64,000 nt of DNA, taken from positions 186,001 through 250,000 of the forward strand of contig OY253678.1 in the NCBI GenBank assembly GCA_958009085.1, given 5' to 3'. A program made the translations under genes and the position numbers. Source of the DNA: Protoeuglena noctilucae. Its lineage: Eukaryota. The notes under the pieces were generated by a model. It had not been told where the DNA came from. It worked only from the letters and a program-made list of their open reading frames with translations, and ran no database searches. Positions 78-61,769 of the stretch are shown here, piece after piece; positions within the stretch are counted from its first letter, which is position 1, and each line of letters starts with the position of its first letter.

Positions 78-3000
78 CCGCACCCTGTTCGGCGCCCCCA
101 ACGTCGACGCCATCTCCGCCATTCGCCCCACCACGGCCCTCTTCCTCTGCAACTTCGAGGCCCTCCACGTCATGGGGGTGTTTGCCATGCAGGGCGATGT
201 GACATCAGCAGTGGGGAGGGCCCTCGAGCCCAGCGCGTTTGGGGGACGCTTTCCCTACCACGTCAGGCGAGTGTCACTGGTGGTACTTGATCAATGCCGC
301 TTGCATCAGTGTCTTTCCATGACCACGTCATGGAAGCTGCTCTGGTACTCGCCCCCCGCGTGTCCATACGGGGTCCGCCGGCTCCCCCCTCACATCCCAT
401 TTCACATCTCAACTTCCCTCCCACCCCCCCACCCACGCAGGGTCCGCCAGCTCCTCCCCGCCCCCGCCCCGCCCCTCCGCTTCGGCCACCCCGCGGCCGC
501 CTGCCCCCCCGGCCCCACCGTCGACACCGCCGCCCTCAAGCAAGCACACCCGGCAGTGCTGGGGCAGGGCAACCGCCTCCGCACCCACCTGCCCGCCGCC
601 ACCGCCGTCGACATCTGTCGGCTGTTCGAGGCAAGGCGATGGGAGGAGACGGCACAGGTGGTGCGGCAGGCAGTGGCGGGTGCAGTGGGAATGACGAGGG
701 ACGCGATGCGGGGTGATGGCGGTGGTGGCGGATCAACGGGTGGCATCAGTGGTAATGAGGGCGGGTTGAAGGGTGGTGCGAGGGGTGGCGAGGGTGCAAG
801 TGGGAGAGGTGGTGCGAGTGGTGGTGAGGGCGGTGGTGCTGGTGCAAGTGGGGCAGAAGATAGTGGACGGAAGGGCGTGAAGGGGAAAGGTCGGGGTTCA
901 ACCCGGGGGTCAGCCGCCGCGTCTGCGGGGTCAGGGGAACGTGCTGCGTCGGTAGAGGGGCGACAGGCAGGGGAACGTGCTGGCGCGCAAGTGGTGACGG
1001 GGCCTGGAGAGGTTTTACTACGGCGCCGGCCATTAACGCTAATTGAGCTGAGCTCATCATCGGAGGAAAACGCGGAGGGTGGGAATGCGGGGAGTGGTAG
1101 GGGTGCGGGGTGTGGCGGTGGGCCTGAGAACGGAGGGACACCTGCGGGGCTTCGAGAGGTGTGCGACGAGGACGGCCGAAACAGCGACTCTGGCAGCGAC
1201 TCTGGCGCTGGCAGCGAGGATGGGTTGGCGTGGGGCGGGAACGTCACGGGTGTCTCACGCCCCTTGCGCGGCCCTCCTGCTCGGGTCTCTGTGAGCAGTG
1301 GGGGCTCTGAGGGGGCTTCGTTTGTGTCTCAGTCTCAGTCTTCTGATTCTGGGGACGAGTGGGTGGCTGGGGATGCGGAGGACGGCAGCGATGCGTCCGG
1401 GTACACGGTGTTTGGGGGTGGCAGTGGGGAGGAGTCGGGGGACGATGACCTGGGCATCAACGTGGTTGGGTTGGAAGAGGGAGGTGAGGTGGTGGGTGGG
1501 GATGGGGTGGGGACGAAAGGGGGTGTGGGATAAAACTATCAAGGAGACTGTGGTGGGTGCACGAGCTTTAAACAGTGTGACGTTGCTTCCCCCATCTTGC
1601 TGGCAGCCCTGGCGATGTGTGATCGAACCCCCACCCCGCTCGTGCTTGCAGCATTACCGTTGCGTGACCTGGAGGACCCCACCATGCCAGCCGCCATGCG
1701 CCTAAGGGGTGGCGCCCGTCGGTTCAAGCTCCGCAAGGCTGCCCCTGCCCCTCCCCTTCCCCCCGCGGCCACGGGGGGACTCCAGGCTTACGCGCACCTC
1801 GGCGACAACGTCAGGTGAGGGATGGGGCTGAGACCGGTTGAAGATAGATGGGAGATTGAGCGCTATGGACGGTTATGATAAGATGTCAAAACAACGCGAT
1901 GGAGAAGGACGGCTGGCTTTTTCGACCTCCGCCCACTCACCCACCTCAGCATCACTCCCACCACTACCACCGCACTGACCCACTCCACACCCCTCCTGCC
2001 ACCCCAGGTCCTCCTTGCATTTCGAGCTCGTGGCCTTCGCCCGGCACTGCGAGCCCTCCCCGTCAGCCCAGGCCCTTGCCCACGAAGCACGGAGAGTGGT
2101 GGCCGAGTCCGCGCGCCGGTGTTTTGGCAAAGCAGCGCAGGTGGAGGCGTTCGGATCGCAGGCCACGGGACTGGCGCTGCCTGGGGGTGATTTGGACCTG
2201 GTGGTGCTGGGGGTCACGGGGCACGTGCAGCTGGGGGGGTACCAGGTGAGGGAGGTGGTCGTGGTGGTGGTGCACGCTGCCTGTAGCGTCGACGCTATCG
2301 TCGACGTCTCTTGTCGATTCGCAAACCACAACAAGAGCTTATGAATCCCTTATCGACTGCTTTTAAACACCATGCTAGCATGAGATTTTCTATTCAGCCC
2401 CATTATTGCACTTCCCCTCTCTCGCAGCGCCCCGTCTTCGCCCGTCGCCTCTCGGAGTTTCTGGCGGACCTGCGCCAGAGCGGGGCCGTGCATGGACGCG
2501 CCTCGGTCATCCAGGCCAAGGTCCCCATCATCAAATGCCACATCCGCACCCGCCCCGGGGCCCCCGCTGTTCGCACCGACATCAGCATGGGTGCTGCCAA
2601 TGGACTGGATGCCGTCAACCTGGTCCGAAGACACCTGGCGCAGGTCCCCCAGGCACGACCACTGGTACTGGCCGTCAAGGCGCTGCTGCAGCACGAGGGA
2701 CTCAACGAGGTGAGTGATGGTCAAGGACAGGCACCAGTGCCATACATGCACGCCGGGCTGTGTTGCACTGGCTGCAGTGCTGCCCCGGGCTATGAGGCAG
2801 GGCTGCAGCATCGTTGCCGTATCTGCCATTCGCGGCTCTGTAGCCACCCTTGCTTATCAAATGCCTCTCGTACCCCCGCCTCCCCCTTCAGGTCTTCACG
2901 GGCGGCCTCTCCTCTTACGCCGTCACCAACATGGTCCTGTGCCACCTCCTATACCTCGGCCTGGTACCCAGTACCACGCCCTCCCCCGCACCCGTACCTG

Positions 3001-4087
3001 GCCGCCCCCTCGGCGCCCGCCACGGCAACGACCTGGGAGTGCTGCTGCACAGCTTCCTCAACCACTTCGGCCGCACTTTCTCCTACAGCCGGCAGGTGGT
3101 GAGCCTGGCGGGGGGGGGATACGTCCCCAGGGACCGAGGGCGGTGGCGCTATGAGGGAGGCCAGGGCCTCCTGGCCGTCGAGGACCCGCAGAGTCCCGGG
3201 AAGAGCATCACGGCGGGGTCGTTTCGCATGCAAGACGTGAAGGAGGCGTTTCGGGCAGCGGCAGACGCCCTGGGCTGCGCCATGCCCCAGACGGGCGACC
3301 GGGTCGGGTGAGGGTGGGCGGGGATGTGAGGTGTCGGGACAATGAGGGGTGTGTCGAGGGTTTAATCATAGAGGTGCAGCTTTGGTGAGATTGTGCGGTA
3401 GGTGGCGGAGGGACAGGTGATTGGCGGGGCGGGCAGTGGATGGGGCCGGGCGACCTCTCGTATGCTCGCTTTGTCATCTGTTGGCCTAATGCCGTGACCC
3501 ACCGCCGTTCTCGATGAATGCAGGCTCGTTCCCGAGGCAGCGAGCGAGGCGGCGATGTGGGCGCAGGTGCAGGGTGCTGGTTCCCATGCATCCGTGGCAG
3601 CGCATGTCACGCACACCTCCCCGCAGCTGCCCATCCTCAACACCGTGTTTGACGTGACGGGTCTGCTGGGTCGGAACGCGCCGTTAATGCGGACAGATGC
3701 GGGGGGTGCAGGGCGCGGGCAGCTGCGCGGGGCGGCGGAGTGGGGCGGCTTAGCTCCAATGCAGGCGCGGGTCCCTCGTCAGCAGGCGGCTTCGCAGAGC
3801 TGGGGCTTCTGGAAAGTGCCGGTGATGACGGCTACGATCCGGACGATTTCGGGCCGCTCGGTGTCATTGGGTCGGGTGGCAATTCGCCGACAAGCAGCGG
3901 CCGGGCATTGGGAGTGGGGACCAAGCGCAAGAGAGAGGATGGGTCGCGCGGTGGGTCGCGCGGTGGGTCTCGGGGAGGCTCAGCGGCCCGATTGTTCGTT
4001 CAGCGGGGGCGGAATGGGGGCAGGGGCGGGCGGGGAGGCCGGGGGCGAGGGCGTGTCAAGCGTCACGCGCCACCATCGCAACCTTAA
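78..4087 (+). CDS. DCD-domain plus TRF4/PAPD5-type non-canonical poly(A) polymerase (multi-exon, 5' end lies outside the window)
   Basis: Exons 78-266, 441-1483, 1607-1814, 2008-2245, 2428-2709, 2892-3307, 3524-3566, 3627-~3705, 3765-4087 splice in frame. DCD-like segment LFGAP..TALFLCNFEALHVMGVF..FGGRFPYHVR. Nucleotidyltransferase motifs FGSQATGLALPGGDLDLVV, AKVPIIK, RTDISM, LNEVFTGGLSSY. PAP-associated motifs DLGVLLHSFLNHFG and LAVEDP. RGG-rich tail. Confidence 0.85.
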
Positions 4088-4501
4088 AGGCTGCGCGCGT
4101 ATAATTTGCTATGCACGCGCGTCTTGAAGTGTCTGATGTCTAGCGCATTGAATCGGGGTGAATGAGCCAGGCGGTGGGCTGGATTTCGCACTGGCACTGA
4201 CGGGACCAGGGCAATCCTAATGACGCCGGGCAGCGGCGAGCACAGGCATCAGCCGCGGCTACTCCCATGACAGTTGTGCATGTGAACCCTGCCTGCCGTA
4301 GTTTGTTTGCGTGTCAGGCTCGCTAGGACAAAAGTGCTGCTGCTGTTGGCCATGAGCCCCATCATCTCAGGCCCAACAAGGGCGCACTAAGACGCGATAT
4401 TGACCAGCAAGTCGGGCTGTGCTATTGCGCGGGATTAGGGGCTCAGGGGGTGCGGCGAGAGCCGTTTCTGCGGGGTGCGTCAGCCCCAGATCGTCAACAA
4501 G

Positions 4502-7500
4502 ATGGCCGACGCCCCCGCTGTTATCTCCGCGTTCCATGAGGAGATATCCAAGCGCGTCGGATACCTCAAGGTCAGTACCGGGCCCCGGGGCGAAAGGCTT
4601 TGCTGCGTCACGGCGACATGTGTGCTGTGCGCGCGTGCGCCGGGCCACCTGTCGCCGCTGTCGTTGCCCCGAGCGATCCTACGCGGACGTTACAGCTCAG
4701 TGGCTCGACCGAACTGCATCTGGCCGGAGCTGTTTCGAATACCGGGCTGCTCGGTGGGCGAGACTTGCCCAGAACGGGAGGCCCGGTCGGAGGGCGCCGG
4801 GGGGCATTTCATATCATGCATGCGATTATGTTTCATATGAGCAAGCCGCGTGTCTCCTGAATCGTAGTCTCGGCGCTCACTCGCGCCAGGAGAGGCTGGG
4901 CGATTGTTTGCCGCAGTTGACGGCCTTTTTCCCGGCGTCGCTATCAGCGCACTGGTTGCTGGGGCTTGCTCTGTGTTCTCGCGATGAGTGTGGAGCGATC
5001 CGCGCACCGCGAGCCCTGACATCTCTGGTTTCACGCTCACCATTCGCGCGCACCCGCAGGGGCTGGAGAGCGTGCACATCTCCTCGGAGGCGATGAAGAG
5101 TCGCTTGAAAGTGAAGAAGAGGATTCGGGAAACCATCAAGTACTACGTGGGGAAGCTCTCGGACCACTACTGGTGCGTGCAGCAGCTGCTGCTGCTTGGG
5201 CATGTGTCCAACTCGCACCGCCACCTCCCGCTCACCGCAGCTGCCGCTTTGTGAACCTGCAGGGTCCCCCAGGTGCTGGCCATCGGCGATGCCCTGGTGG
5301 CCAAGGGCGAGCATGACCTGGCCAAGACCGCCTGCTTTGCTTTGGTCCTCGAGGCCGACCTCTTCCGGTGAGGGACGCGGATGGGATGCATGTGCAGATG
5401 TCATCGTCAGATGGCCCATGGCCATGTCCATGTCATCCTCCTGTCTCGCTCTCTTACTGCCCAGCTTGCTGTCGTCACACTGCCCCACTGCTCCCACCCC
5501 CCCCTCACCCGACTACACCCCCATTACCCACCCCACACACCCACCCCACTCACCCCCGCAGCTCCGCCTCGGGGGAGAGCCGCCTGATGTCCCGCGAGGA
5601 CCGCGCGGCTGCGGTGGTGCGCGCCACCGCCGGCTCCGCCCTCTGCGACCTGGCAGCGGTCACAGACGAGGACCCCTCTCTCGCCCTGGCCAGCTCCCTG
5701 CGTCGCTACGTGGCTGCCGCCGGTGGCCTCAAGCAGGCCCTCGACCTGGCTTTGCCTTATGAGCGCCTCTACTGGCTCACTTTCAACGTCTCCATCCTCA
5801 CCTCCCGCGCCGCACGGCAGCTGCTGTCACGGGGGTTCGCAGCCGACGCCCTTCCTCTTCTCGTGCACGCCGTCCTGGCGGTGGAGAACGGCGTCAACCT
5901 GTGCCTCCCGAGGTTCCTGCCGTGGCGCGTCGAGCTCTACCGCCTCGCGTGCGCCGCCTACGTTGCTGTGGGGGCCGTGCCACAGGCCCGGGTGAGACTG
6001 CTAAGATATCGATGCTGGGAAGTGAATGGCACACACAGCGTGTCTGGCATCATGTGCTATACACATTGCCGCCCTACCATCTGCCTTCCCCGCAGTCGCC
6101 GCTGTCCCAGGGCCTGGCGAGGGTGACGGAGCTGCGGGACGTGCAGTCCCTGGACCCCGTGCCGTGCCCCCAAGACACTCTCGATGCTTACCGGGAGACA
6201 CTGGACGGAATGGCATCTCTAAAACTGACGCTGGACCTGGCGGGGCCCGAGTCAGCGCTGGTGCCAGAGGGGCAGACGCCCGAGGGGGCGGCGGAGGCAG
6301 CGGTGGCGAGGGCGGAGGCGGGGGTGCCCGACGAGGCACTGCGGCTGCTGGCGCTGCTGGGGTGCCTGCACGATCCCAAACGGCCCCTCGGGAAGCGCGG
6401 GGGACTCACCCCGGTGCAGCAGGCGGCGGTGCGGGCTGCGGGGCGCGTCGCCACGCCCCACCTCAAAGTCATCGAGGTGAGTTCTGAGCGGGATGGGTGT
6501 TAGATGCAAATTATCTAGTTATACGAGTTGTTGCCTTTCCTATCGCGTCCCTTCCATGGTGCCCTCACCACCCATCCCATGCTTACTAGTACACCCTCCC
6601 CCACCCCCGCAGTCGACCCTGGGCCGCCGCGCTGCCGCCATGGCTCGCCTGGGCGCCGACCTGGGCTTGGAGCCACCCGCAGCTACAGCCGCGGACGATC
6701 TGACCAACGTGCCCGCATCGATCATGGCCGAGGAGGGCCCTGGGGACGGCCCTGAGGACACGGAGGCGTTGGAACGCGCCACGGCGGTGGTGGGGGCATC
6801 TGCACACCAGGCGCTGCTGCTGGCGGCGTACGCGGCGGAGGACTGGACGCTCTTCCGAACGGTGAGGGGCTGCTATGTGCTTAAGCGAGCTTTGTAAAGG
6901 AGGCTTGTGAGTGTTGTGCGAGTAAGAGACGCGGTGTCATGGCATCATGCTGCTTTCCAGTGTATGTGTTTTATCCTCGTCACTGCAAGCAACATTGCAG
7001 CACCCGGCTGCCACTATCCGCACCCGGCCATCCCCCAGCATCACTCACCCCGCACGTCACTCATCCCACCATGCATCACCGTCCCACCCCCAGGCCCTCT
7101 CCACCGCTGAGCTCCGCTGCAACCACGAGGGCGACGTCTCCCTGGGCGCCGCCATGTCTGGGGAACTCACGGCCCTGCGAGTCACCGCCCAGGGCCTGGA
7201 CGCCCTGCGTCGCATCGAGGTGCCCGACAGCGCTTACGTGGTGCGGACCAAGAGCCCAGAGCCGGGACCCAAGGTGGACGCGGGAACGAAGAAGCCGGTG
7301 AAGAAGGCAGATTCCCGAATGCCAGCACCGACGGCGGGTGCGGATGGGGGTGCGAAGAAGGGGGCTGAGGAGGAGGCCAAGGCAGCGGCAGTGAGTGCTA
7401 GCGCATGTGCAGGGGTGGACCTCTCCGGGGCAGTGAGGGACCCGGAGCAGTTCGCAGCACGGCTGCAGCCCGCGGTGCAGTTTTTGTGCTCTGGGGCGCG

Positions 7501-10500
7501 CGCGGCGGCACTGGCGGCGCCGGACGTGGTGGCGGGGGTGGCGGCGGCGCTGCTGGGGGCGTGCCGCGGCGACGTGGATGCGTATCTGGTGCGGGACGGG
7601 AATTGCGAGGAGCAAATGGAGGCGGTGCTGGAGGCCCTGGACGAGGCCTTCAGCGCCGTGGGTCACCCGGACGCAATTCTGGCGCTGGGCCTGGCGATCA
7701 AGCTGGGCACGTCGCTGGACAAGGGCGGCAAGGTGGGGGTGGCTGTTTGCATCGTGCTTTGCGAGAGGGCTGCTATGTTCTGCTAAAGACACTCTCATCA
7801 CTAGCTCCTTCTCTGTGTAGTTGCAACTGAGTGACTGACTGCGCTCGCTGGCATGCAGCACCCATCCTCCACACCTCACCTCTCATCCCCCCCTCCACCC
7901 CTCTCTCCCCGCAGCTCCTTCGCGGCATCGAGGTGATGCGCCGTGCCGAGTCCCGTGCGCGTGACATGCGTGCGTGCCTGGTGCAGCAGGCAGTCGAGGC
8001 AGAGAGAGATGCAGTGGGGAGGGAGAGGGAGAGGGAGGAGGGGGCGGGGGCCAGGTCACTGGCAGTGGAGATGTTCTTGGACAAGGGGTGAGAGAATGGG
8101 GTGGAGTTATAGATGGGTGACAGAGGAGCGGGTGGCATGGTGATGAGTTTTGGGTGATGAATATCGGGCCAGTCTTTCATGCTCAACTCTCAACTCTACC
8201 CCCCCAGGTCGTCCCCTGCGACGTCTCTGGACCGCCCGCACCCCCTCTGCGACCCCCGCCACCTGAGTCGCTTCAAGTGGGTGTCTGCCGCACGCTCCCA
8301 GCCCCACCCCGAGGTGTCGCCTCTCCTGGCGGCCATCACAGACACCGAGCAGGTCGTCGCGTGCATGCACGCCGACGTGCTGGCTTTGCTCTACCGCCTC
8401 GAGGTGAGGGAAAAGGGGAGAGGAGACGGACTGGCCACAGGTGGACTGCCATTTTCTCAGTCAGTGTTCTCCCTCCAATGCTCGACGTAACCACCCACAC
8501 CTCACCACCCGCACACTCCCCTCCCTTGTGCACCCCACCTCGCGTTCCGCCTATGTCACTACAACGCACCCCATCTCTCTCCTCCTTTCCCCCGCAGCTG
8601 CGCCAGGGCATGCTCGACCAAACGGAGGCCGCCCGCCGCCGCACGCATCGCTTGGTGGCCGACATCGCCCGTCGCGACGAGCAGCACCTGGTGTTTGGAG
8701 AGCGAACGCTGAAGGAGGTGCGGCTGGACAGGGAGCGCGTGGCAGCGGCGGCCGAGACGAGCAGCAACCCCGCGGCGGCCGAGAGCCGACTGGTGGACGA
8801 GTGCGGGGACAACCTCTACGCCAGGGCAGTGCTGGTGAGAATGCGATGGCAGAGACTGTGATCGGCACAGGGAACAGTGATTTCTTATTCGACTTGAGGC
8901 AGTCAGTTGCCCAACAAGGATTGCCTTTGTGTCTGACCCCCCACCTCGTCATCTGACCTGCCCGTTTCATCTCCAACCCCTCCCCCCAGTTCATGGAGAT
9001 GGCCCCTCACTAATGTCATCTGACCTGCCCTTCACTCTCCCCCCCAGTTCATGGAGATGGCCCCGTACCACGCCACGCACGACAAGCGCGTGCGGCTGCT
9101 GCAGGACGCCCACGAGTGCCTCCTGCAGGCCCAGGCGGCGGAGGAGCGCGTGTTATCGGCGCAGCAGGGGCACCACGCCTCGCGCAAGGGCAGGCCCACG
9201 GCGCCGGTCGTGCTCTGGCGCACCTCCACCTCCGTCGCCGTCACCTGCCCGCCCCTGCGCGCGCGGGGCAAGTCCCCCACGCACTTCGCCGTCTACGGGA
9301 AGCTCTACGCGCCGGGGCTCGCCCTCAGCATCAACAACACGGCAGCGGGTGAGAGCTGAAGGAAGGCAGTTGCTTAATGCTTCATCTCTCCCTCTCCCAC
9401 ACACCCTCGCTTAGCAACAACTCCCCACCCTCTCTTGCTCGTTTCTCTCCCTTTCCCGCACAGCCTCTCTCACCCTCATCTCTCACCCTCACCTCCCCAT
9501 CCTCATCTCTCCTCCCAGAGTTCGAGGGCCTGGGCGTCCCCGTCCCCCTCCACTCCGAGGTGGTCGTCCGCGGCCTGCCACCCAACCGCGCCGTTCTCAT
9601 GGCAGTGGCGGCTTACGACAGCGCAGGCGCACTGGTGGCTGATTTAGGAGAGAGCGGCCCCGAGGTGGTCACGTGCGCGCCACTCCCCCTTCTGCTGCTC
9701 CATGCCAACCTGGCCATCACGGCGGGCAACCTGGGCGCGCTCGACGTCGGCAGGGCCTCCAGCGCCCTCCTCACGCGCCACTTCGTCAAGATGACCGAGG
9801 AGAGGCCGCTGTGGGAGGAGGACCCCAGCGACTGCACCACGTTGCACGCAGCACGGGTGCGGGACGCCAGCCCCCAGCTGCTGCGGGCCTTCGCGCACGC
9901 CACCTACGTCGGGGCCGCGCGGCTGGTGGCAGGGCCCCCCGCCCCCGCCGTGCCGCTGTCGGGCGCCGTGCCTGGTCCCCTGCGCACTCCGTACTTGGAG
10001 GGGCAGGTGGCGCGCGTGCGTGCGGCCAAGCGCCTGCTGCTGGCCATGCACGCCGCCGCCACCATCAACGACCAGCAGCTGCTGGCCGAGGGGGCCGTGC
10101 GGGTGCACAACCTGCTCGCCCCCCTGACGGAAATGCCCCGCAAGTCGCCCCTGCTGGCCAAGCCCCTCGCCGCCTGCTGCGCCCTCCTCCGCGGCCTCGC
10201 CGACGTGGCCCTGCACCCCTGCCGCGCCGCCATGCCCGCCGCCACCCACCTCACCCTCAACGCCATCCAAGTGAGTGTGTAATGGTGATGCATGCATTGA
10301 GGTGTGTACTATGGTCATGGCATGGCAAACGCCCACGTTCCATCCTGCCTTGTATCTTTAACCGCACACCCCCACCGTCCGTCTCCTCACTCCACCACCC
10401 CAATGCCACCCCACTCACACACTACTCTCTCACCATCACCTCACTCTCCCCCCCACCCCAGGTCATCGGTGATGTGCATGAATCCGACGCCCTGTCTCTG

Positions 10501-38543: not shown

Positions 38544-38612
38544 CCACAGGGTATTAACGCTCTCTGCAGCTGCCAATGAATGCGATGGCGATGGCTGCCA
38601 GCAAGACATGCA

Positions 38613-38700: not shown

Positions 38701-38701
38701 G

Positions 38702-47458: not shown

Positions 47459-47584
47459 GGGCTTCCGCCGACGCCAGCCAAAGCACAGCACGGAGCGCCT
47501 GCGCACGGGCAACCGTGGGGAATGAAGTGGGTGAGGGGCCAGGTTTAGACCACGAGTTGAAGGGGGCAGATGGTGAGGGCACCT

Positions 47585-48374
47585 TTAGAAGTCGAGCCTG
47601 CGCCTGAGCATGTCGAGGGCGTCTTGGGAGATCTTCTCATCGCTGGGGCGGGACTGCTTGATTGGGGCCTGCGGCGCCACGCGAGCAAGGGTTGGATGAG
47701 AGACCGGAGTGCAGGGAACCCAGAGCAGCGTCACGTGACTAGAATACTTGCCGTGGGCGTGCGGATAGGCGCTGTGTCCGGTTCGGGGCTCTCCTGGTTC
47801 CGCCCCACGCCTGCCGACCCAGCACCCGCCACACCCTCAGGCGGCTGTGCCACACCGGCGGACGCACGCGAGCCAACCGTCTCCGCAGCCGCAGCTCGCG
47901 GGCATGCCTGTCCACCCCTGAGACGTTCGTAGTTCGAGGCCCGGGTATGCGTCGAAAGGGAGGCGAGCCGGGCGGAGAGGAGGTCGACGTCTGCGTCTGC
48001 AGAGACAGCCGAAGCGAGGTCCCGTCGAATGGAAGGTCCCAATACGCGACGCGACGCAGGAGAGAGAGACGATAGACATGCGAAACCATGTTCGGCGAAA
48101 AGCGGCTTTCAGCCGCTCGTCAACGACCCGCTGACGAGAGCGCACCTGCCGTGGCACGGTCCACGTCGAGCCGACTCGTCCGTAGGTCCTGCGGGTGCGG
48201 CAGAGGCGAGCCCTTCTATAGACGTTGAGAGCGCGGTCGGGCCTGCGCAGGGCGGCGCGCCGCGAAGGCCCAGCAGGTTGGCACGCGCACAAAAAGCCGC
48301 TGCCTGACCTCCGAACCTCCGGCAGCTTCGCGACCTGTCTTCTCACGCCCGGCCGGTACTTTCTTAGGTTGCAT
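47585..48374 (-). CDS. Small, probably disordered protein ending in TPTAPIKQSRP..RRRLDF* (candidate cyclin-binding protein)
   Basis: Four exons splice in frame (MQPKKVP..GSE|DLRTSRLDV..|ADVDLLSARLASLS..IRTPT|APIKQSRPSDEKISQDALDMLRRRLDF*), with a GC donor at about 47751. Confidence 0.55.
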
Positions 48375-48715
48375 GCAAGAGCGGCTGCCCTTCCAGCCGC
48401 TGGCCACTTCCCGGGTCTACGCTGGACGGTTCGGCATGACTTGAGAGCCTTCGCTACCTAGGGGACAGGACGAGACGTGCAAGTCGCATGGCATAAACTC
48501 ACGAAGACCACACCAGTGACCTGGGACTTGTCACCGTGCAGGCGGCGCTGACCACTCTCAGATTCTCGCAGGGAGGGCTTTGTGCTTGAAGCACTATTTT
48601 AACGATTTCTACTGCCCGCTGCGGCAGCTCGTGACGTGAAGGAGAACAGCGTGGCGCATCGCGCTAGGCGAATCGTGTCAGCAGTAGGGTCAGTCTTGCT
48701 CGGCCAGCCTGGCCG

Positions 48716-50595: not shown

Positions 50596-50646
50596 ATTCG
50601 CGCACGCGGCACGCTCCACGCACCCATCGGCCAGCCTAGCCCAGCC

Positions 50647-51272
50647 TCAAAGATCTCCATGTCCGTGCTTGGCCGCCATCTCGTCGATGGGGCAGTCCCG
50701 GAAGACCCTGGACTCCCAGACCTTACCCGTCCCGGGGTGCACCTTCAGCACCGTCACTCCAGAAAACTCCACCCTCTGCCCCGTGGCAGGGAGGCCCAGG
50801 AACCCGTGCACGTTGGTGCCGGACGCGGTCCAGTACACATACACGATCCCGACCTCCTTGCCGTTGATGTTCTTAATTTTGAAGTTCAGGTCCGGGTATG
50901 CGGATCGCATGTCCGAAATGAGGTTCTCATACCGGCGCCTGCCCCTCAGCTCGAACTCGGCACCCCAGCAGCTGTCCACGTAACTGCAAACGGCTCAGCG
51001 GGGCGCAAGGTTCTCACGTCTCGCCTCATCTCTCACGCCGAGTGACCGGCGAGTACTGCCGTGCTGTCTTGCCTGTGGTCGTCGGTGAGAAGGAGATCGA
51101 GGACCCAAAACTCCCCCTGCGACCACACCCTCTGGTACAGCTCGTGGGCCACCTGCTGCGCAGCCCGGGCGCTCCATGGCGTGGCCGGCAGCGCGTTGTT
51201 CGTCGCCCTGAGGTTGATGGAGGAGAAGGTCCAGCCGTGGGCGCTCGCCCTGTATTGTCTGCCCGGAGCCAT
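50647..51272 (-). CDS. SnoaL-like ester cyclase / NTF2-fold protein
   Basis: LYQRVWSQGEFWVLDLLLTDDH|SYVD..MRSAYPDLNFKI..WTASGTNVHGFLGLPATGQRVEFSGVTVL. One GC-AG intron in the CDS. Confidence 0.85.
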
Positions 51273-52506
51273 GCTTGCCAACGCATCCTAGAAGCAGGCA
51301 ACACTTAGCGCCTCCTCACCCGGCCGCGGTGGTCGTGCTGTGCATTGGCACGTCTATCGGGCACTCAGGCTCGTCCTGGCACCATGAGCGGCTCCTCGCC
51401 GACTGCGTTCCCCCTCGTGCCTTGTCGGCCGCTGCCACCAGTCGGCAGGTTGGTCTCTGCGGCGAAGAAGGGCCCGTGTTGGTCCCTCCTTGCGCCATGC
51501 GCCACGCCCAGGCATCGCCATGGATCCGCCACAGTGACGCACCCTCGTCTCCAGGTAGCGCGCCGTACGGCCCACGCGCGCGACGCCGAGCGGACGCGGC
51601 AGGGCGCGGCAAGGGCGGAAGACAGTTAGGCAGCACATGGCGCGACCCGGGATCCAAACGACGCCCCTCGCGCAACCAGCCCCTCGGCCTCGAACTAGAT
51701 CTCAATGCGGCAGGCGACGACGAGCCCGACCGGCCGCGGGGTGCAGGAGCGCGTGCGCCGAGGCGACCGTGCAAGCGCAATCGCCGACTCGAGCTTTGAA
51801 GGCAAGATCCCTGAGACAGTACACGACGGCTCGCGCCGGAAATTGAGCCTCGCCGCGCCCCAGGCCGTGCTTTGGGCAGTGCGACAGGCCAAAGACCTGG
51901 CGTTGCAGGCCTGGTATTTTTTTTTGCCACCCATCGCCGGCCGCAGACCTCCACGCCTCGCAGACCACCCCACAGCGATTGTTTTCGGCGTGCAATGCTC
52001 GGCGGGCCGCCTCGCCCTCCTTTTTTTTTTGCTTGACCACGGGCGACAGCGGCCTACCGCTGGTATCGCACTAGCCGTTGCTTTGGTCACAGGTGACCCG
52101 TGAATGCGCTGCGTCAAACGCGAAGGAGTTAGGGAGGGACGGGGCTTAAGTCTCGCGGGTCGGGCCCCGCGACCCGGGGGCTCCCACGCGCCTCGGGTCT
52201 GCGATTTGTGATTATGTCGATAATTAGAACCGTTCAGGGGCACCCTTGGGTCAGAAGGGTCCCGAAATCACGCGGAAAGTTCCTCTCTCTCCAGCAGCGC
52301 CCCGCTTCGCCCGCGCCGGGTGGGGGCAGATTCGTTTTGCTTTGCCGCCTTGGCGCGCCGCTGTGACGCGGTGTGTCGGCCGGCTGGCGACCTGTGCCAA
52401 CAAGGCCCGTGCCGCGCCGCGTGACCGTGCGCTGCCGCGCCCTCCGCGGGGCATCGCGCGCAATCGATCGCGAGGCCTCTGCCGTGGCTCTCGGAGCTCA
52501 ACTATT

Positions 52507-55413
52507 ATGCTCCCTCTCGCCCGGTGCCGGCCCCACAGCGCTCAGGCCTGCGCCCCAACCCTCCCACAGGCCCCCGCCTTTGGCGCGTACGCGAGCGGCG
52601 TTTCCCCGGCTCCCCGGCAAGGCGGCCGCCGTGAGGAATCGCTGGGGGGACTGGTTGGCTCGGCGGGCAAGATGGCGCGGCCGGCGGGCGCCACGTCAGT
52701 GCTCCCGGCGGGCCCTCAGTGAGGAGCGCGGTGGCGCGGCGCGCCCGGGGCCCAGCGCGGTTGTCGCGCGCGCGCGGACGGTGTCTGCCCGCTTCTTTTC
52801 GAGAGATCGGGGCTGAGATGGGCCGTTTTTCCGGGATTGCGCGCAGGCATGCGCCTTGCGCCGGGCAGTCGTGGGCCCACCGGCGGGCCCCGGTCGCGCG
52901 ACACTTCCGCAACATCGGGTGGGTGTATCGCGAGACGCACCGGTCCGTCTAGCGGCAGCCGCCGACGCGCCGCAGGCAGGCCCGCACGCCCGTGCGGGCG
53001 GGCACCTACCTTGACGACGCCGAGTTCATCCCGGCGCCCTCCGCGACGCTGATTGACGAGCTGCAGGCGAGTGGCGCGTCGAGTCGAAACGACTCCTGGC
53101 CTTCTCCGAGAGGCAGGCAGGTGTGCGACGGCGCCTGGTGCCGGCCGTCCCCCGCAGCACATGCGGACGCAGTCGGACGAAGAGGTGTCCAACCGGCAGG
53201 AGGTGAAGACGGCAGAGGAGATCGACAGTGACTGCATACGATGGGGCCGCGCCCTCGCGCGGAGCAAGACAGGGATCCAGGACTACAACGAGACGGAGCG
53301 GGAGCTGGAGGACTTGGCCGCCAGGGGGCACAGCGTGCCCGTGTACGTGATGCTCCCGTTGGACGCCATTTGGCTGGAGGAGAAGGTGACGCGGTGGCCG
53401 CGCCGATGCTCCACGGCTTGCCGGGGGGTGCGTCTGCCCTCTGGACCCGTCTGGACCTGTGTTGCTGTGGTGGCCCGCAGAATGGCACTCCCTTGGGCAC
53501 GCTCTGGCCCGAGCTCAGCCGGGAGCGCATCCGCGGCATCCATTCGTACGTGAAGAGGTGCAAGGCTTTGCAAGTGGGCCTGCAAGCCATCAAGGCGGCG
53601 GGGGTGGAGGGCGTGATGGTGGACGTGTGGTGGGGCATCCGTGGAGAGGGAGGCCCCCGGCATGTATGACTTCAAGGCGTACAAGGAGCTCTTTAACATC
53701 ATCAAGAAGGCCGGGCTCAAGATCCAGGCCGTGATGAGCTTCCACGCGGCGGGGGGCAACGTCGGCGACACGTGCAAGGTGCCGCTGCCGGCGTGGGTGC
53801 TGGAGGTGGGCGAGCGCGACCCGGACGTCTTCTTCACCGACCGCGCCGGGGTGCGGAACCGGGAGAGCCTGAGCTTCGGGGTGGACGACGTCCCGCTGCT
53901 GGACGGCAAAACGCCCATTGAGGTGTACCAGGCGAGGCCGGGCGGGCGCAGGGGGCAGGGCGTGGGTGAGCGTGGCCTCTGCGGCAACCGAAGCGGACCA
54001 CCTCTCTCGCGTGCTCCCCCGCAGCGGTTCATGGAGCGGTTCGTGGACGAGTTTGAGGACATGATTGGGACGACCATCACGGAGATTACGGTGGGGATGG
54101 GCCCCGCGGGGGAGCTGCGGTACCCGGCGTACCCGGAAGGCGACGGGCGGTGGCGGTTCCCCGGTGTGGGGGAGTTCCAGTGCTATGACGCGTACATGCT
54201 CAAGAAGCTGCGGCAGGCGGCCAAGGACTTCGGGAGGCCGGAGTGGGGCCACGGGGGCCCGCACGATGCGGGGCACTACAATGCCAAGGCGTGGGACACG
54301 GGGTTCTTTGTGTCGGAGGGGGGGTCGTGGGACTCACCCTACGGCGCCTTCTTCCTGAAGTGGTACTCAAGTCTGCTGGTAGACCACTGCGACCGCATGC
54401 TGACGGCGGCCAACGAGGTGCTGGGGAAGCGCAACCTCCCCATGTCGGTGAGACGCGGGGGGGGGGGGGGCGTGGCATGGGCGCCGGTGTTAGAGCGGGT
54501 GCAGCTACCGCAACACCACGCCATCCCCGCCTGGTCTGATTTGCAGCTCCGGAGGGTGTCCTCGCTGGATGGCGACGTCAAGCTCTTCAGCTTTGCGTCC
54601 TCCTGCCACCTCGGGGTGAAGCTCCCGGGGGTGCACTGGTGGTTCAAGGCCAAGTCCCACGCCGCAGAGCTGACGGCTGGCTTCTACAACACGCGCGACC
54701 GCGACGGCTACGAGGAAGTTTTCAAGGCAAGCGCGGGCTCGCGCGGGGGCGTCGCCGGCTGGGCTGTGCTGGGGCCCCTGCGGAGCGGTGTCGGAGCCTG
54801 CGGGTGTCGGTTAGGATAACAGGCGCTGCGGCTGTTGCCCGCAGATCCTGGCCAAGCACGGGGCTCGCTTAAGCTTCACGTGCGTCGAGATGCGGGACCG
54901 CGAGCACGCCCCGGAGGCGCGCTGCTCCCCCGAGGGCCTCCTGCAGCAGATTTTGGAGCTGAGCGAGCGGCACAGCGTGGCGGTGGCGGGGGAGAATGCG
55001 CTGCAGCGGTATGACTACGAGGCATTCGATCGCATTATCCAGAGCGCCTTCGGCCAGGCGAGTGCAGCGCGACGGCCTGTGGATGGTTTGCGTGGCATCG
55101 CTGGAGGGGTCTTGGATGACTGACAATGCCCGCTCGGTTGGTCCCGCAGGCGGCTCAGAAGAACAGCCTGGCGCAGCTGACTTTCCTGCGCATGGGGGAC
55201 CTGATGTTCGACCAGTGGGACGCCTTCTCCAACTTCATATTACGGATGCGCAGGTGCGGGGTGGGGCCCGTGCGGGGCGGGGCCCTGGCGGGGCATGCTG
55301 CCCCAGAGACATGCGCGAGATGTGTCTCTGACGTTGCTCTTTCGCGCAGGATTCCGTTAGAACGCGCGAAGGCATTGGCTGAGCGGCAGAGGGCGAGCCA
55401 CCACGTAAACTAA
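52507..55413 (+). CDS. BAM: Beta-amylase (GH14), plastid-type, with an apparent +1 frameshift at 53640
   Basis: VPVYVMLPLD, GVMVDVWWGI(c)VERE, QAVMSFHAAGGNVGD, GPAGELRYP, PGVGEFQCYD, HAAELTAGFYNT, FTCVEM, AGENAL, TFLRM. Confidence 0.9.
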
Positions 55414-55817
55414 GACGCCGGCCTTTTGGTACTCTCGCCACCTCCTCCCGTAGCTACCAGTTCGATTTTAGGCACCGCTCCGCCTCTGCTGGGAATGTGA
55501 CCTGTTTTTGCCACCAGACCGAGCGCCAAGCTGTGTCGTGGTGGGTGACTCCCGATCGCCTTGCGCAGCTCGTCTCCCTCCCCGGCCTCCGCGCTGCAGC
55601 AGCCAGCTAGTCAAGCCGAGGAGCCCCGGCGTCGCGCATCCGAAGAGACGTCGCGACGCTGCGGCGGCAACCCCTCGCTTGCCCGCTGTGAAGCCCGCGT
55701 CATGCATGCGCATCACTGCACCGCTGCCTCCGTGTTGAAAGGAGCCATGGGCGCTGGGACCGATTCACTCGGCGTCAGCCTCGCTATGCAGACCCTGTGC
55801 CGCCCCGAGCCGCACCG

Positions 55818-56986
55818 CTAGAGCTTGAAGATGGCGTTTAGCTGACTCACGTGCAGGTGGACATCTCCCCGCCCCACGCTCAGCGCGCTCGCGTCGCCAG
55901 TCGCTTCCCACCGGAACTGCGGCACAGGAAGCGCGACGAGAATGCTCGCATGATTTACCCAATACACAACTCATGTGCGCATTAGTCCCCCTCAGAGAGG
56001 GCCCCGTCACCTCCGAGTCTGGCAAGGGGATGGCGAGGTTGGCGCAGACCTCTGCCTGGAAGTGATCGGTCACGCGGACCTTCTGCCGTACGTCGAAGCT
56101 GTTGCGGACCATGGAGAAGTTGTTGGAGCCACTGCAGAATAAGGGTAGGGGCGGTGCTGCTCCAGCGTGCACCAGGAGCTCTGCAGCACGTGTGCAGCCT
56201 GCCCATGAGTCCGTGCCTGTGGCTCACCTGTGGATGCCCAGCATCAGACGAGGGCGGAAGTCTCTGGCTTGCCGATCCAGCAGGGGCTGGTAGGACGCTC
56301 TGGCTTCCGCGGCCAGGCTGAAGGTCGTCGACAGCCCAGGAGCGGCGAGGGGAATCTCCTTCCGATAAACAATCTCCTGACACTGCAGAGGGGACCCCAG
56401 CTCGCTTGCCAAGGGCTCTCAAGGGATGTGGCCAGGGCAGCAAGACGCCATGGCAGGCGGGCGTCGCTCACGTCCGTGTTGAGGCCGATGGTTCCCCCGA
56501 GGATGGTCTCCTTGCACATCGCGTGGTAGCTCAGCTGCTTGGTCCTGACGTTGAAGTCCACGCCGAGCCGGACTTTCAGGGGATAGACGACCAGGGCCTG
56601 AACACGGGGGATCGTGGCGGATGACCCACCCCATCTGCGCACCATCGAGCCTAGTATTCCAGCGACTTGCCGCACCTTGCGCAATTTGATATTGTCTGGA
56701 GGCTTTGCCGACCACGTGAAGCGCAGACCCGGCGCGGTGGCCAGCATGCCCCGCGTCTCGACCGTCTGCACTTGGTCGCCCCTGCGCCGGGCATAAAAGG
56801 ATCCCAATGTGTCGTATATGTTAGTGACACATGGCGGGGTCCCTTTTTATGGCATGACGAGCGCAGGGCAGACAGCTCGGGGTGCTCAGGGCGGGCATGA
56901 CTTCACCGGCCCTGCGATGACCTCTGCGAATTCCTGGTCAGCCGGACGGCGGGCAGGAATCGGAACGCGCTTCCTTGGTCCGACAT
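55818..56986 (-). CDS. Uncharacterised beta-strand-rich protein, possible organellar outer-membrane beta-barrel
   Basis: In-frame spliced exons with alternating amphipathic strands (LKVRLGVDFN, LSYHAMCKE, FDVRQKVRVTDHFQAEVCANL) ending GDVHLHVSQLNAIFKL*. Confidence 0.55.
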
Positions 56987-57187
56987 CGTGGCTCGCTCAC
57001 GGTCTGGCCAGGCCAGGCGCAGCGGTGGGCACCGCTCAAGCGTGCTTTGGATTGCAAAGACTCTTTTATCGTTGACAGGGCGCGCTGAGGGCGGCTGGAC
57101 GCTGCTAGCCCTCTATACTAGCGCCCCTCTTTGTCGGCAGCCAACAACTCCAGATTGACTCGATGGCTCATGCGGTGTCGACGGGCG

Positions 57188-58233
57188 TCAGGACAGCGCC
57201 TGGACCAGCTCGTCGCACGTGTCTGTGAGGAGGTCCAGCACCTCCTCGAACCCCCGGCGCCCTCCATAATAAGGGTCGGGGATGGGCTTCCCCCGATGCT
57301 TGGTGCTGTAGTCGGTGATCAGGCGGACCTTGAGCGACAACTCCTCCCTCCGCGGGACTCCCAGCTTCCCCTGGGCCCTCCAGTGGTCCGCGGCCTCGTG
57401 GATGGCCGCAATGTTGGACGGGTCCATCGCCAGGATATGGTCGAATTCACCAAGGTCCGAGGGCTGCAAAGGCAGAGGGCCGCATCTGTGTCTGCCCTGG
57501 GCCCCTGAGCTCCAGCCACGGTGTGACGGCCTGCCTCCCATGGACACGTTGCGCACCTTGAGTGGACGCGAACGCGACCGGAGCGTGATCCCCCGCTCCT
57601 CAGCCGCCGCTCGCATCCGTGGGTCCGCAGGGTCCCCGACGTGGTACGAGAAACCGCCATCCATGTACCAGTCGTCGCTCCCTCCCCCGGTGCCGCACGA
57701 GTCAATCACATACTGCGCCGCTAGGCCCCTCTTCTCAACCACGTGCTGCATGACGGCTTCGGCGCTCGGCGACCGGCAAATGTTGCCAAGGCAGACGAAT
57801 AAGACGCGCGTCGGCCCCCCAGCGCTCGCCCCCCCTGTGGCCTTCACCTGAAAGCACGGCGGGGGCATTGCTTCTGCTATGACCATGGTCTCACCTCCTC
57901 AGATTTCGCCGTGCACCACAGCTCACCGAGGGTGTGGGCCGGGACGCGCTCAACAACCCCCGCATCATCGAAACCGACAGTACGCACGACACTTCTGGTC
58001 GATGAGCTCGCCATCACACCCACGGAAGGGTTCATCGCGTGGGTAACAAAGGACGCGGCGCATGGATCTGGTAGCCTCTGGCGTTTCGGGCAACGATCGC
58101 GATCGCAAGGGCGGAGGAGGAGCAGCAGTGTCGCAAAACATTTCACTGGCCGCGACGGCGTCCACGATAGGCGAGACAGGGACTCGCCCTCCGCCTTCAG
58201 AGACATGGCCACGGCAGCAAGCGCCCGCGCCAT
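57188..58233 (-). CDS. Low-molecular-weight protein tyrosine phosphatase with an N-terminal extension
   Basis: VLFVCLGNICRSPSAEAV, IDSCGTGGG..HVGDPADPRM, FDHILAMD, IPDPYYGG. The start is tentative. Confidence 0.92.
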
Positions 58234-58377
58234 CACCTGCCGTTCCCTGGTCGCCGTCCGAAACACAAGAAGGCCGTGCTGCGCCGCGCAATCGGTGCCG
58301 AGGGCTCTGGTGAGGCGAACGGGCCCCTCAACGTGCGTGACCCATCGCAGAGCTTTTGCGCCGATCTAAACGCGCGC

Positions 58378-61300
58378 ATGCGTAGCCGAGCATTCGAGGC
58401 GCTCGATACGGCTACACGCACTCTTTCAAGCGTACTCGGCGTTTCGCCCTCGCAGGTTCAGTCGCTGCGGGCCACCTGCGCGCCGAGGTGAGACGGGGAA
58501 TTGATGCACGCGGGACATGGCTTGATTCCGCATGGCCAACCCGCATCGTGTTTTACATGCAATGAATAATCCATCTGGCTGGTCTGAGCAACCGCCGCTT
58601 GCCTTGATGGACGCGCAGGAGGCCCCCGAGTACGCGCACCTTCGTCGCGTCGAGTGAGGTCGAAGAGATGGTGTCCAGCGGTGAGTGTTCGTCATGCGAA
58701 CAAAATGCGCGCCACTTATCTACCCTCTGAGGGTCTTGAAACCGGCGCCGTCTCTTGGGCCCGCAGATCCCAAGGTCAACGCGCTGCGGTCCGCAATGGC
58801 AGCCGCCAATGTCCAGGCCTTCATCGTGGTGGGCATGGGATGGGGTTCATCTCGCTCCCCGCTTCCTGCTCTTCGTAGCCTGCTGCTCGGATGCCTCTGC
58901 ATTCTGTGCCCGCAGCCCTCGGAGGACCCTCACATGTCCGAGTACGCCCCCTCGTGCTTTGCGCGCCGCGAGTTCATCTCCAAGTTCGACGGCTCCGCGG
59001 GGACTGCCGTGGTGTCCGCCGACAAGGCGATGCTGTGGACGGACGGGAGGTACTTCCTCCAGGCCACGCAGCAGCTGGGCCCCGCCTGGCAGCTCATGAA
59101 GGCGGGGATCAAGGGTGCGTGTGCCCTGGCGTGCGTGCTCGCTTGGGTCGTCTCGCATCGGCATCGAACAAAGCAACAGCTGTTTCTCCCTCACTAGCAG
59201 GCGTCCCGACGATCAAGGAGTGGCTGTGCCGGGAGCTCCCCGCCGGCAGCCGCGTGGGCATTGACCCGTACGTCCACACGCTCTTCGAAGCCAGCGAGCT
59301 CAAGGCCGCCCTGGAGGAGGCGGGCAAGATATTGGTGAGCGTGCACGGATTTGTGCTGCAGCGAGTCAACGGCGGCACCACCCTCTGACGACGGACCAAG
59401 GGAAGGGTGGGGAGGGTCGACATGTATGCTCCCAACCTATCCCCACTTTGCAGGTGCCGCTGGAGACCAACCCGGTGGACATCGCGTGGGGCGCCGACCG
59501 CCCGGCCCCTCCGACGAATAAGCTCCGGGTGCACCCCCTGAGCCTGGCTGGCGAGGCGGTGGCCGACAAGGGTGCGTTCGCACGCGGCATATCACAGGCA
59601 GTGACCGCGCTCGCTGCCCTTGCAGTGCCCGGCACAGCAAGCCCGTCTGCGTTTGGCCCGTCCCCCGCAGTGCGGCGCATGGCACAGGCGGCGGCGGAGA
59701 AGAAGGCGGACGGCGTCCTCGTCACCGCCCTGGACGAGGTCGCGTGGCTGCTGAACCTCCGCGGGGCCGACGTCGCTTTCAACCCCGTCTTCCTCTCCTA
59801 CGTCATCATCGCCGGTGAGGCGTGCTTAAGGGGACGTTGGGGTAGCGCGATGCCTGTTGTTGACGGTTCTTGGCGAGAGCCTCCTCGCCCCCGCATGGAC
59901 GCAGACGGCGCTGCCACCCTGTACGTGGATGCGGCCAAGCTGACGCCGGAGGTCTCGGCCCACCTGAACGAGGGCGGCGTGCGCGTCAAGGGCTACGAGG
60001 ACGGTAGGGGACGCCCTGGCAACAGCTGCCGCGCACCTGCAGGTGGCCGTCGCAGCCGCCTGCGTGATACGACCCCACTCGCCCCGCGTCGCCGCAGCCC
60101 TCGCCGACTTCCAGGCCCTGGCGCGTCAGGGCAAGCGCATCCTGGTGGACCCCAAGAAGGTGTCGTACGCCTTCGCCCGCGCGGCGATGGAGACGGACGA
60201 GGAGCGCAAGGCCAAGAAGCAGAAGGCGAGGGGACGGGCACTCGGGCGGCGGGTCAGGGCGCGCCACAGCTCTGGGCTGTCGTGTCCTGATGTGGGGCGG
60301 AGACTGGCCCTGCCCGCAGGTGGAGGATGGCGCGGCGTCGCCCCCCTCGTCTCTGGTGCAGGAGCCCAGCATCGTGAGCCTGGCCAAGGCCGTCAAGAAT
60401 CCCGTGGAGATGGATGGGATGCGCGAGGCGCACCTGCGCGACGCCGTGGCCCTCGCGTCGTTCTTCTGCTGGCTCGAAGGGGAGGTGGCCAAGGCGAGTG
60501 CGTGGCATGGCAGATGGCGTGCGTGTCGCCCTGCTGGAGGGACGGCGTGCACGCGTGGGGGGGGATGCCGCATTCAAGCAAGCCCTCTTCTCCCCGGCCA
60601 CTCTCGCAGGGCGCCAAGCTGGACGAGGTGGCCATTAGCGACAAGCTGCTGGGCTTCCGCCGCCAGCAGCCGGGCTTTATCGAGCCGTCCTTCCCCACCA
60701 TCGCGGGCGCGGACGCCAACGGCGCCATCATCCACTACCGGCCGGTCCTGGGGGAGAACAACAAGACCGTCAAGCAGGCGAGCGCAGGCAGGGCCACATC
60801 GCGAATGGCCTGGGCGGGGCACGCTGGACAGTTCCTGACTCCGCCCCATGAGTCCCTGTGCCCCAGGACACGATGCTGCTGGTGGACTCAGGCGGGCAGT
60901 ACGACTGCGGCACGACAGACGTGACGCGGACGGTCCACTTCGGCACCCCCACGGACAAGCAGCGCCGGGCCTTCACGGCGGTGCTCAAGGGCCACGTGGC
61001 GCTCGACGTGGCCGTGTTCCCGGAGGGCACCCCCGGCTTCTGCCTGGACACCCTGGCCCGCACGGGGCTCTGGGCTCTGGGCCTCGAGTACCGGTGACTG
61101 CGGGACAGGCTGGCAAGGTCTAGTGCAGGGGCGTGCGGGGGAAGTGAGGGCCTTCATCCGCGCACACTCGCAGGCACGGGACGGGCCACGGCGTGGGGGC
61201 CGCCCTGAACGTCCACGAGGGCCCGCAGTCCATCAGCCAGCGCTACACCATCACGCAGGGGCTCCTGGACGGCATGATCATGTCGAACGAGCCCGGGTAC

Positions 61301-61769
61301 TACGAGGACGGCGGGTTCGGCATCCGCATCGAGGTGCGCCTGCGACCCATGCGGCCTTGCAGAACCGCGGTAGAACCGCGCTGCTTGGGTCCTTGCCGTC
61401 CTCACACCCGTCCACTCGCTCCTGCGCAGAACCTCGTCATCGTCCAGGCCAAGGAGACGCCGTACAAGTTCGATCCCGCCATCAAGAGCCTGGGCTTCGA
61501 GAGGCTCACGATGCACCCCATCCAGAAGAAGCTGGTGGCCGTGGAGATGCTGTCCCCGGCTGAGCTCGAGGCGCGTGCTGGCGTGGTTCCCCTAGCAGCC
61601 GTCCGCTGCGGGTGGAGTGCGGCGTGACGACTGCGACGTCCACTCCCCGCCCTCGCAGTGGCTCTCGGCGTATCACCAGGAGATCCTCGACAAGGTGTCG
61701 GGCAGGATCGCGGACGCGGACGTCAAGGCGTGGCTGGAGCGCCAGTGCCGGGAGTGGACCAAGCATTGA
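58378..61769 (+). CDS. Xaa-Pro aminopeptidase P (XPNPEP1/APP family, M24)
   Basis: [95 protein letters not shown]. Confidence 0.95.

Follow-up and report, generated by a model that had tools for sequence, protein, structure and literature searches.

Can GC serve as a routine 5' splice-site dinucleotide in a green alga? In animals, fungi and plants, GT-AG introns make up about 98% and GC-AG introns about 1% of the total, according to a comparative survey (PMC7072748). The question is raised by a stretch of 64,000 nucleotides from Protoeuglena noctilucae (contig OY253678.1, positions 186,001 to 250,000), which we take to be nuclear DNA from a marine green alga rich in both GC and introns. This 64-kb stretch is the window of our analysis, and all shares of splice classes given below refer to it unless stated otherwise. 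From its sequence alone, at least 17 GC donors had been proposed (hereafter the original prediction). All 17 sites are present: seven are supported by RNA or by a transcript-derived protein, two by homology and one by RNA at its acceptor only, and seven were chosen by a gene finder. The supported introns of this class leave the mRNA exactly at GC...AG, with the acceptor staying AG, and GC-AG introns account for between about one fifth and one third of all introns in the window. All coordinates are given in Table 1.

Introns of the aminopeptidase P gene

Assembled contigs from three marine metatranscriptome runs (three samples of one study) and from one DNA run were aligned to positions 44001-64000. 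Contig cover is absent at about 46-50 kb and has no bearing on introns there. The listing of joints comprises 15, all in the aminopeptidase P gene, and 28 further joints lie outside it. Each of the 15 introns is skipped in contigs of all three RNA runs and in none of the single DNA run, so that this gene carries up to 15 introns within 3.7 kb. The placement of a joint is ambiguous by 1-4 letters, and we therefore enumerated every permitted cut. Eleven of the 15 joints permit GT..AG. The other four permit no GT..AG cut, and their sole AG-ending cut is GC..AG; these cuts coincide exactly with the four donors that had been proposed for this gene (60226, 60494, 60778 and 61571). The spliced sequence is a single open frame encoding a full protein, the exons of which match the Pfam domains Creatinase_N and Peptidase_M24.

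These observations bear directly on the possibility of an artefact through wrong placement of the joints, actual use of nearby GT donors or chimeric contigs. Such an artefact could be suspected from the alignment of contigs rather than reads and from the ambiguity at each joint. Yet none of the cuts allowed at the four GC joints has GT..AG termini, the same joints recur in three samples and never in DNA, spliced frames yield full-length conserved proteins, and the transcript-derived protein described in the next section independently gives two more GC-AG introns. We consider an artefact very improbable.

One contig of RNA run X3 joins position 60445 back to 57910 with 31 foreign letters in between; it may be a chimera or a back-splice.

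Introns and reading frame of the beta-amylase gene

Three homologous proteins were compared with the beta-amylase gene of the window: P0001, a 383-residue, transcript-derived protein from a JGI contig; P0002, which is genome-derived; and P0003, which comes from a relative. P0001 is identical to the beta-amylase exons of the window and skips three introns, two with GC donors (53932-54024 and 54727-54844, for both of which GC..AG is the sole fitting cut) and one with a GT donor (54448-54546). P0002 reads through the first of these. Further downstream, an RNA contig sets the intron total between 54845 and 55343 at 188 nt. Nineteen combinations of boundaries satisfy both this length and an open frame, and a single one of the 19 is colinear with P0003, namely a GC-AG intron at 55058-55149 together with a GT-AG intron at 55254-55349. 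The remaining donor, at 53067, has no in-frame GT within 45 nt and was retained by the gene finder (see below) at every prior. Of the four GC donors that had been claimed for this gene, transcript or RNA evidence thus upholds three and homology the fourth, 53067; altogether, four of seven supported beta-amylase introns have GC donors.

The intron at 55058-55149 provides a single case of GC-intron retention: it is kept in the P0001 transcript, in which the protein continues as FGQASAARRP..., and is spliced out in a contig of run X1.

Between 53625 and 53665 on the plus strand, in the conserved GH14 core, the beta-amylase frame shifts by +1: VDVWWGI and VEREAPGMYDFKAY lie in successive frames, separated by one extra C; P0003 from the relative is unbroken there. 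The DNA run spans this site without gaps, as does an RNA contig (53479-53928), and the frameshift is therefore present in both DNA and RNA. P0001 and P0002 both begin at a methionine after it. The gene may be a transcribed pseudogene, encode a truncated enzyme or use +1 frameshifting.

A scan of metagenomes yielded a single locus, on a contig of a relative (L001, 8686 nt, 74.7% GC), which encodes a 660-residue beta-amylase at 4236-6215 without interruption. The two proteins are 81% identical in pairwise comparison (L001 product against P0001). The window gene has at least seven introns, and L001 could be genomic DNA or cDNA. Around the L001 gene, no gene in common with the window was found: apart from beta-amylase, Pfam detected nothing but a Torsin-like domain, and the matches returned by tblastx were mostly of low complexity.

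Frequency of GC-AG introns

The RNA-supported introns number 21, in three genes; all end in AG and have only GT or GC donors. Seven are GC-AG and 14 are GT-AG, a GC-AG share of 33% (95% confidence interval 15-57%). The probability of finding seven or more GC-AG introns among 21 is 1e-9 at a true rate of 1%, 5e-5 at 5% and 3e-3 at 10%. If five predicted GT introns fitted by length sum in the minus-strand gene at 55.9-56.9 kb are added, the count becomes 7 of 26.

The whole window was covered with a gene finder based on dynamic programming, which combines codon log-odds, donor and acceptor weight matrices that omit position +2, a prior on intron length and an adjustable prior (q) for GC donors. 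Training started from the exons and introns proven by RNA and continued on the output of the program itself. At q = 0.25 it predicted 34 GC donors among 140 introns, and at q = 0.1 it predicted 28 among 144; in both settings all 21 RNA-supported introns were recovered and all 17 originally proposed sites were used. Lowering q to 0.02 gave 22 GC donors among 145 introns (20 of 21 supported introns recovered, 16 of 17 sites used), and q = 0.001 gave 12 among 143 (18 of 21 and 10 of 17). With priors as low as those usual for other eukaryotes, introns that are proven thus go missing. When the program was trained only on sequence to the left of 48.5 kb, 19 of the 21 RNA-supported introns were still recovered, and one miss at q = 0.1 and 0.02 was the proven GC donor at 60226, which was swapped for a GT. 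The program also fuses adjacent genes and creates a false intron at the beta-amylase frameshift. Its counts are estimates: about 140 introns, 15-24% of them predicted to be GC-AG at priors of 0.02-0.25. The original prediction of 100-130 introns with more than 10 percent GC-AG was right to place the share above 10 percent; both of its figures were slightly low.

Could the excess be local, with GC donors abundant by chance in the two genes covered by RNA and amounting to only a few percent across the genome? The supported sample is small (21 introns of three genes, with the wide interval given above), and the predicted share per gene ranges from 0/9 to 4/9. Against this, GC donors are predicted in 10 of 15 gene models across the window, 12 of them persist at a prior of 0.001, and seven or more in 21 would be a rare draw even at a 5% rate. 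A sampling excess of this kind appears improbable to us, if less so than an artefact.

Sequence context of donors and type of intron

The two donor classes differ in their flanks. An exonic AG precedes all seven RNA-supported GC donors, in contrast to four of the 14 GT donors (Fisher p=0.004), and in the predicted set (q = 0.1) an A occupies position +3 in 7/28 GC donors versus 4/116 GT donors (p=0.001). The consensus of the GT class is only G/GTGAG, whereas that of the GC class is AG/GC(G/A)AG (a slash outside brackets marks the exon-intron boundary). GC donors in other eukaryotes carry a stronger consensus. In-frame GT alternatives near the GC donors of the window have poor flanks and far lower scores. 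The description of the proposed donors as nearly all following exonic AG and reading GC(G/A)AG proved accurate: 16 of 17 read GC(G/A)AG, the exception being 61571 (GCGCG), and the only one without an exonic AG is 47751 (acg).

In predicted introns, acceptors are mostly (C/G)CAG/G after a tract that is C-rich rather than T-rich; the 5-mers most enriched in the last 45 nt are CCCTC, TCCCC and CTCCC.

Supported GC-AG introns display the features of the U2 type: they are present in DNA and absent from mature RNA, have GC and AG termini (7/7), and lie in a U1-complementary donor context with a pyrimidine-rich tract. They are probably ordinary U2-type introns, which the major spliceosome would remove. 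The U12 type was considered and rejected. Its donor consensus is /(A/G)TATCCTT; the 28 predicted GC donors read GC(G/A)(A/C/G)..., and none has ATCC at +3 to +6.

GC donors could also have been spread by a mobile intron family (introners) with a GC terminus. The intronless beta-amylase on the contig of the relative hints at large differences in intron number, as such elements might produce. All-against-all blastn of the 144 predicted introns, however, gave three reciprocal pairs, all of them weak and 20-32 nt long, and for want of sequence families we reject a mobile origin, to which we assign a negligible probability.

In predicted coding exons, GGT(G/A)AG is scarce (6 observed versus 17.8 expected from codon shuffles), which suggests avoidance of cryptic GT donors; the depletion is partly circular, since the gene finder converts such sites into donors.

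How GC donors may have become common

We think it likely that these are ordinary spliceosomal introns in which position +2 drifted from T to C under GC pressure, the change being offset by strong flanks. With C at +2, the donor would form one base pair fewer with U1 snRNA, and subsequently with U6, and complete pairing at -2, -1 and +3 to +5 would repay that loss. Under strong G+C pressure, as indicated by 67% overall and 85% at third codon positions, changes from T to C at +2 would then build up wherever the flanks suffice. This would require no departure from the splicing machinery of other eukaryotes, in which about 1% of introns are GC-AG. The composition of the window (G+C 67.2% overall, 63-70% along the stretch; 69.6% in coding sequence, 85.5% at third codon positions, 63.4% in introns) fits a mutational push toward C at +2, and the stronger flanks of GC donors favour drift with compensation over an altered U1. 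GC-biased drift from GT to GC, compensated by exonic AG, was among the explanations originally offered, and it agrees with the composition, with the distribution of exonic AG and with the enrichment of A at +3.

The other explanation originally offered is a changed reader of the 5' splice site (the 5' end of U1, U1C/LUC7 or U6) that is blind to T versus C at +2. GC donors would then equal GT donors, and their share would follow base composition. The sheer share of GC-AG introns, 15-33% compared with about 1% elsewhere (PMC7072748), speaks for such a change, and no datum here shows the snRNAs to be standard. The stronger flanks of GC donors would be unexpected if +2 went unread. A neutral +2 also predicts more C than T, given that introns consist of 32% C and 18% T, yet GT is about 3-4 times commoner than GC. 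The compensation pattern argues against a U1 preferring C at +2; other changes of the machinery may still have occurred. On balance, we regard a changed reader as unlikely, although clearly less so than a local excess.

Several points weigh against drift with compensation. With a donor model that omits the exonic positions, the association with exonic AG becomes borderline (12/22 GC versus 39/121 GT donors, p=0.055); it is absent when the penalty on introns is relaxed (8/55 versus 27/171). AGGC(G/A)AG is not depleted in predicted exons (8 observed, 7.1 expected). The argument from U1 and U6 pairing is an inference. Furthermore, only 64 kb were examined; the RNA evidence consists of assembled contigs from one study rather than reads, with 28 joints outside the listing; and seven of the 17 sites rest on a gene finder with about 10% errors. 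Any claim for the whole lineage is an extrapolation from 64 kb.

A bolder proposal is that this alga is the first member of Viridiplantae with routine GC donors (at least a quarter of introns genome-wide), brought about by a lineage-specific change in U1, U1C or U6, and a third independent origin after haptophytes and pelagophytes. We find this doubtful. If true, it would offer a tractable plant-like system for studying proofreading of position +2.

Other proposed sites

The GC donor at 39538 in the DNA polymerase theta (POLQ) gene is indicated by homology. The Pfam DNA_pol_A profile runs on past the junction, and in tblastn searches with three POLQ homologues the alignment reads SEAR, then a stop-containing insert, then EFMERF; SEAR/EFMERF is among the conserved junctions that GC splices had been said to restore. 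In the SnoaL-like gene, RNA contig pieces end exactly at the predicted acceptor of the 51072 intron (50983/50984), and an alternative GT donor 36 nt inside is possible. When a transcript-derived protein of this gene was sought from the same organism, the only hit was a relative at 63% identity.

Seven donors (267, 14559, 17569, 38120, 24669, 47431 and 47751) were chosen by the gene finder at priors of 0.25, 0.1 and 0.02. At the 267 intron, the match to the Pfam DCD domain breaks off at the junction, and Pfam detected no second half of the domain downstream. This intron is 174 nt long, a multiple of three, and open, so it may be retained. The exon before 14559 aligns to residues 2032-2119 of Chlamydomonas FAP54 and stops at the junction; retention of this intron gives a stop, and its read-through frame has a marginal CFAP54 match only (E 0.47). 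Among solved structures, no relative was found for the exon after 14559 or for the exons flanking 17569.

Among GT-AG introns outside the two main genes, the one in the low-molecular-weight (LMW) phosphotyrosine phosphatase gene is crossed by the Pfam LMWPc profile, which continues across 57464-57556. For the minus-strand gene at 55.9-56.9 kb, the five GT introns that were predicted agree with the length sum from RNA once a single acceptor is moved by 6 nt.

Table 1. Genes and introns of the 64-kb window (lower case, exon; capitals, intron; gene finder, predicted introns).
Feature	Position	Strand	Donor	Evidence and remarks
GC-AG intron, aminopeptidase P	60226-60319	+	aag/GCGAGG	RNA joints
GC-AG intron, aminopeptidase P	60494-60609	+	aag/GCGAGT	RNA joints
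GC-AG intron, aminopeptidase P	60778-60866	+	cag/GCGAGC	RNA joints
GC-AG intron, aminopeptidase P	61571-61658	+	gag/GCGCGT	RNA joints
GT-AG introns 1-6 of 11, aminopeptidase P	58310-58455, 58488-58618, 58681-58766, 58829-58915, 59115-59200, 59335-59453	+		RNA joints
GT-AG introns 7-11 of 11, aminopeptidase P	59572-59670, 59815-59904, 60004-60097, 61094-61173, 61334-61429	+		RNA joints
GC-AG intron, beta-amylase	53067-53157	+	cag/GCGAGT	Homology; colinear with P0003
GC-AG intron, beta-amylase	53932-54024	+	cag/GCGAGG	P0001; RNA contig pieces ending at 53928 and starting at 54022
GT-AG intron, beta-amylase	54448-54546	+		P0001
GC-AG intron, beta-amylase	54727-54844	+	aag/GCAAGC	Skipped by P0001; only GC..AG fits permitted cuts
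GC-AG intron, beta-amylase	55058-55149	+	cag/GCGAGT	RNA length sum and colinearity with P0003
GT-AG intron, beta-amylase	55254-55349	+		RNA length sum and P0003
GT-AG intron, LMW phosphotyrosine phosphatase gene	57464-57556	-		RNA contig pieces; CT..AC on + strand
GC-AG intron, POLQ	39458-39538	-	cag/GCAAGA	Homology
Probable GC-AG intron, SnoaL-like gene	50984-51072	-	cag/GCAAGA	RNA at acceptor only
Predicted GC-AG intron, DCD-domain gene	267-440	+	cag/GCGAGT	Gene finder, all priors
Predicted GC-AG intron, CFAP54/FAP54	14559-14773	+	cag/GCGAGG	Gene finder
Predicted GC-AG intron, CFAP54	17569-17675	+	aag/GCGAGA	Gene finder, all priors
Predicted GC-AG intron, RCC1-repeat gene	24510-24669	-	gag/GCGAGT	Gene finder, all priors; no in-frame GT within 45 nt
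Predicted GC-AG intron, gene of unknown family	38120-38201	+	cag/GCAAGG	Gene finder, all priors; stop if retained
Predicted GC-AG intron, 5' part of POLQ	47340-47431	-	cag/GCGAGA	Gene finder, all priors
Predicted GC-AG intron, 5' part of POLQ	47669-47751	-	acg/GCAAGT	Gene finder, priors 0.25 to 0.02; stop if retained
DCD-domain gene	from 79	+		Pfam on predicted exons
Cid1-type poly(A) polymerase	2009-3305	+		Pfam on predicted exons
CFAP54/FAP54 flagellar gene	about 4490-19748	+		Pfam on predicted exons; very large, about 35-44 predicted introns
Coiled-coil gene		+		Pfam on predicted exons
JmjC/cupin gene		+		Pfam on predicted exons
Beta-amylase	about 52.5-55.4 kb	+		Pfam, homologues, RNA
Aminopeptidase P	58.2-61.8 kb	+		Pfam, RNA
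RCC1-repeat gene		-		Pfam on predicted exons
START-domain gene		-		Pfam on predicted exons
DNA polymerase theta (POLQ)	38.7-48 kb	-		Pfam on predicted exons
SnoaL-like gene		-		Pfam on predicted exons
LMW phosphotyrosine phosphatase gene		-		Pfam on predicted exons

Gene content and origin of the window

Pfam searches on predicted exons identified about a dozen nuclear genes, and no Rfam family matched in the window. Overall, the genes of the window most resemble those of green algae, and the collections contain no close named relative of this alga. The closest named relatives of the beta-amylase are chlorophyte enzymes (50-54% identity), and a quick single-gene tree groups the window protein with one relative in a separate branch next to the core chlorophyte classes. 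The best match of one CFAP54 exon among solved structures is Chlamydomonas FAP54. The presence of the CFAP54/FAP54 gene implies a flagellum with a central-pair apparatus in this alga. Sequencing runs that match the stretch are marine metatranscriptomes and DNA runs.

An RNA contig of 2599 nt (X4 record 10, 55344-57843) extends from the final, plus-strand exon of beta-amylase into two minus-strand genes, and convergent 3' ends therefore overlap or abut in the RNA assembly. Four loose-end consensus strings of RNA contigs, searched whole in the window, gave no match.

Significance and comparison with known systems

The finding matters mainly for annotation. A gene predictor or aligner that accepts only GT would put about every fourth or fifth intron of the window in the wrong place and, with up to 15 introns per gene, would corrupt most multi-intron models. 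A green alga with this property would join haptophytes and pelagophytes as a case in which high G+C repeatedly pushes +2 from T to C, and the compensating exonic AG would mark the limit to which C is tolerated there.

In dinoflagellates (e.g. Symbiodinium genomes), GC and GA donors are common at a moderate GC content. The window resembles them as an instance of common non-GT donors in a marine alga and differs from them in that no GA donor was seen. Plants, animals and fungi have U2-type GC-AG introns with the same termini and likewise with a strong donor consensus. Surveys put these at no more than about 1-2% of introns (PMC7072748, PMC6310983), and the share in the window is 10-30 times higher. 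The plant-wide survey, in which algae were covered, mentions no such green alga in the part at hand (PMC6310983). Our literature search found no report of a high GC-AG share in green algae, most subscription journals lying outside its coverage.

The closest parallels lie in other algal lineages. In the haptophyte Emiliania huxleyi, 56% of donors in 241 hand-mapped junctions and 61-65% in Cufflinks/RNA-seq sets are GC, with AG acceptors, which Feldmesser et al. (2014) ascribe to the 65% GC genome (PMC4028052). Predictors that assume GT mis-annotate there too: JGI models have 82% GT and 15% GC donors, whereas RNA-based junctions have roughly 40% GT and 60% GC (PMC4028052). Our window shares with E. 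huxleyi a GC-rich sequence, RNA-validated GC donors and AG acceptors (PMC4028052). It differs in that E. huxleyi has a GC majority as well as GA donors, whereas GT is in the majority here and the 21 RNA-supported introns have only GT and GC; moreover, the green lineage and the haptophytes belong to different supergroups. Among pelagophytes, predicted GC-AG introns amount to about 14-17% in Aureococcus anophagefferens and Pelagomonas calceolata, compared with 0.32% in a relative of lower GC content, and the authors likewise attribute GC-AG to high GC content (bioRxiv 10.1101/2024.10.30.620910). The window resembles these species in its GC-AG share and in coming from a GC-rich marine alga, as judged here from window G+C only. 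Pelagophytes, unlike the alga studied here, are stramenopiles and have 0.1-0.9 introns per gene, in contrast to up to 15 in a 3.7-kb gene in our window. A high share of GC-AG introns is thus already known from GC-rich algae, and the present instance from the green lineage adds to them.

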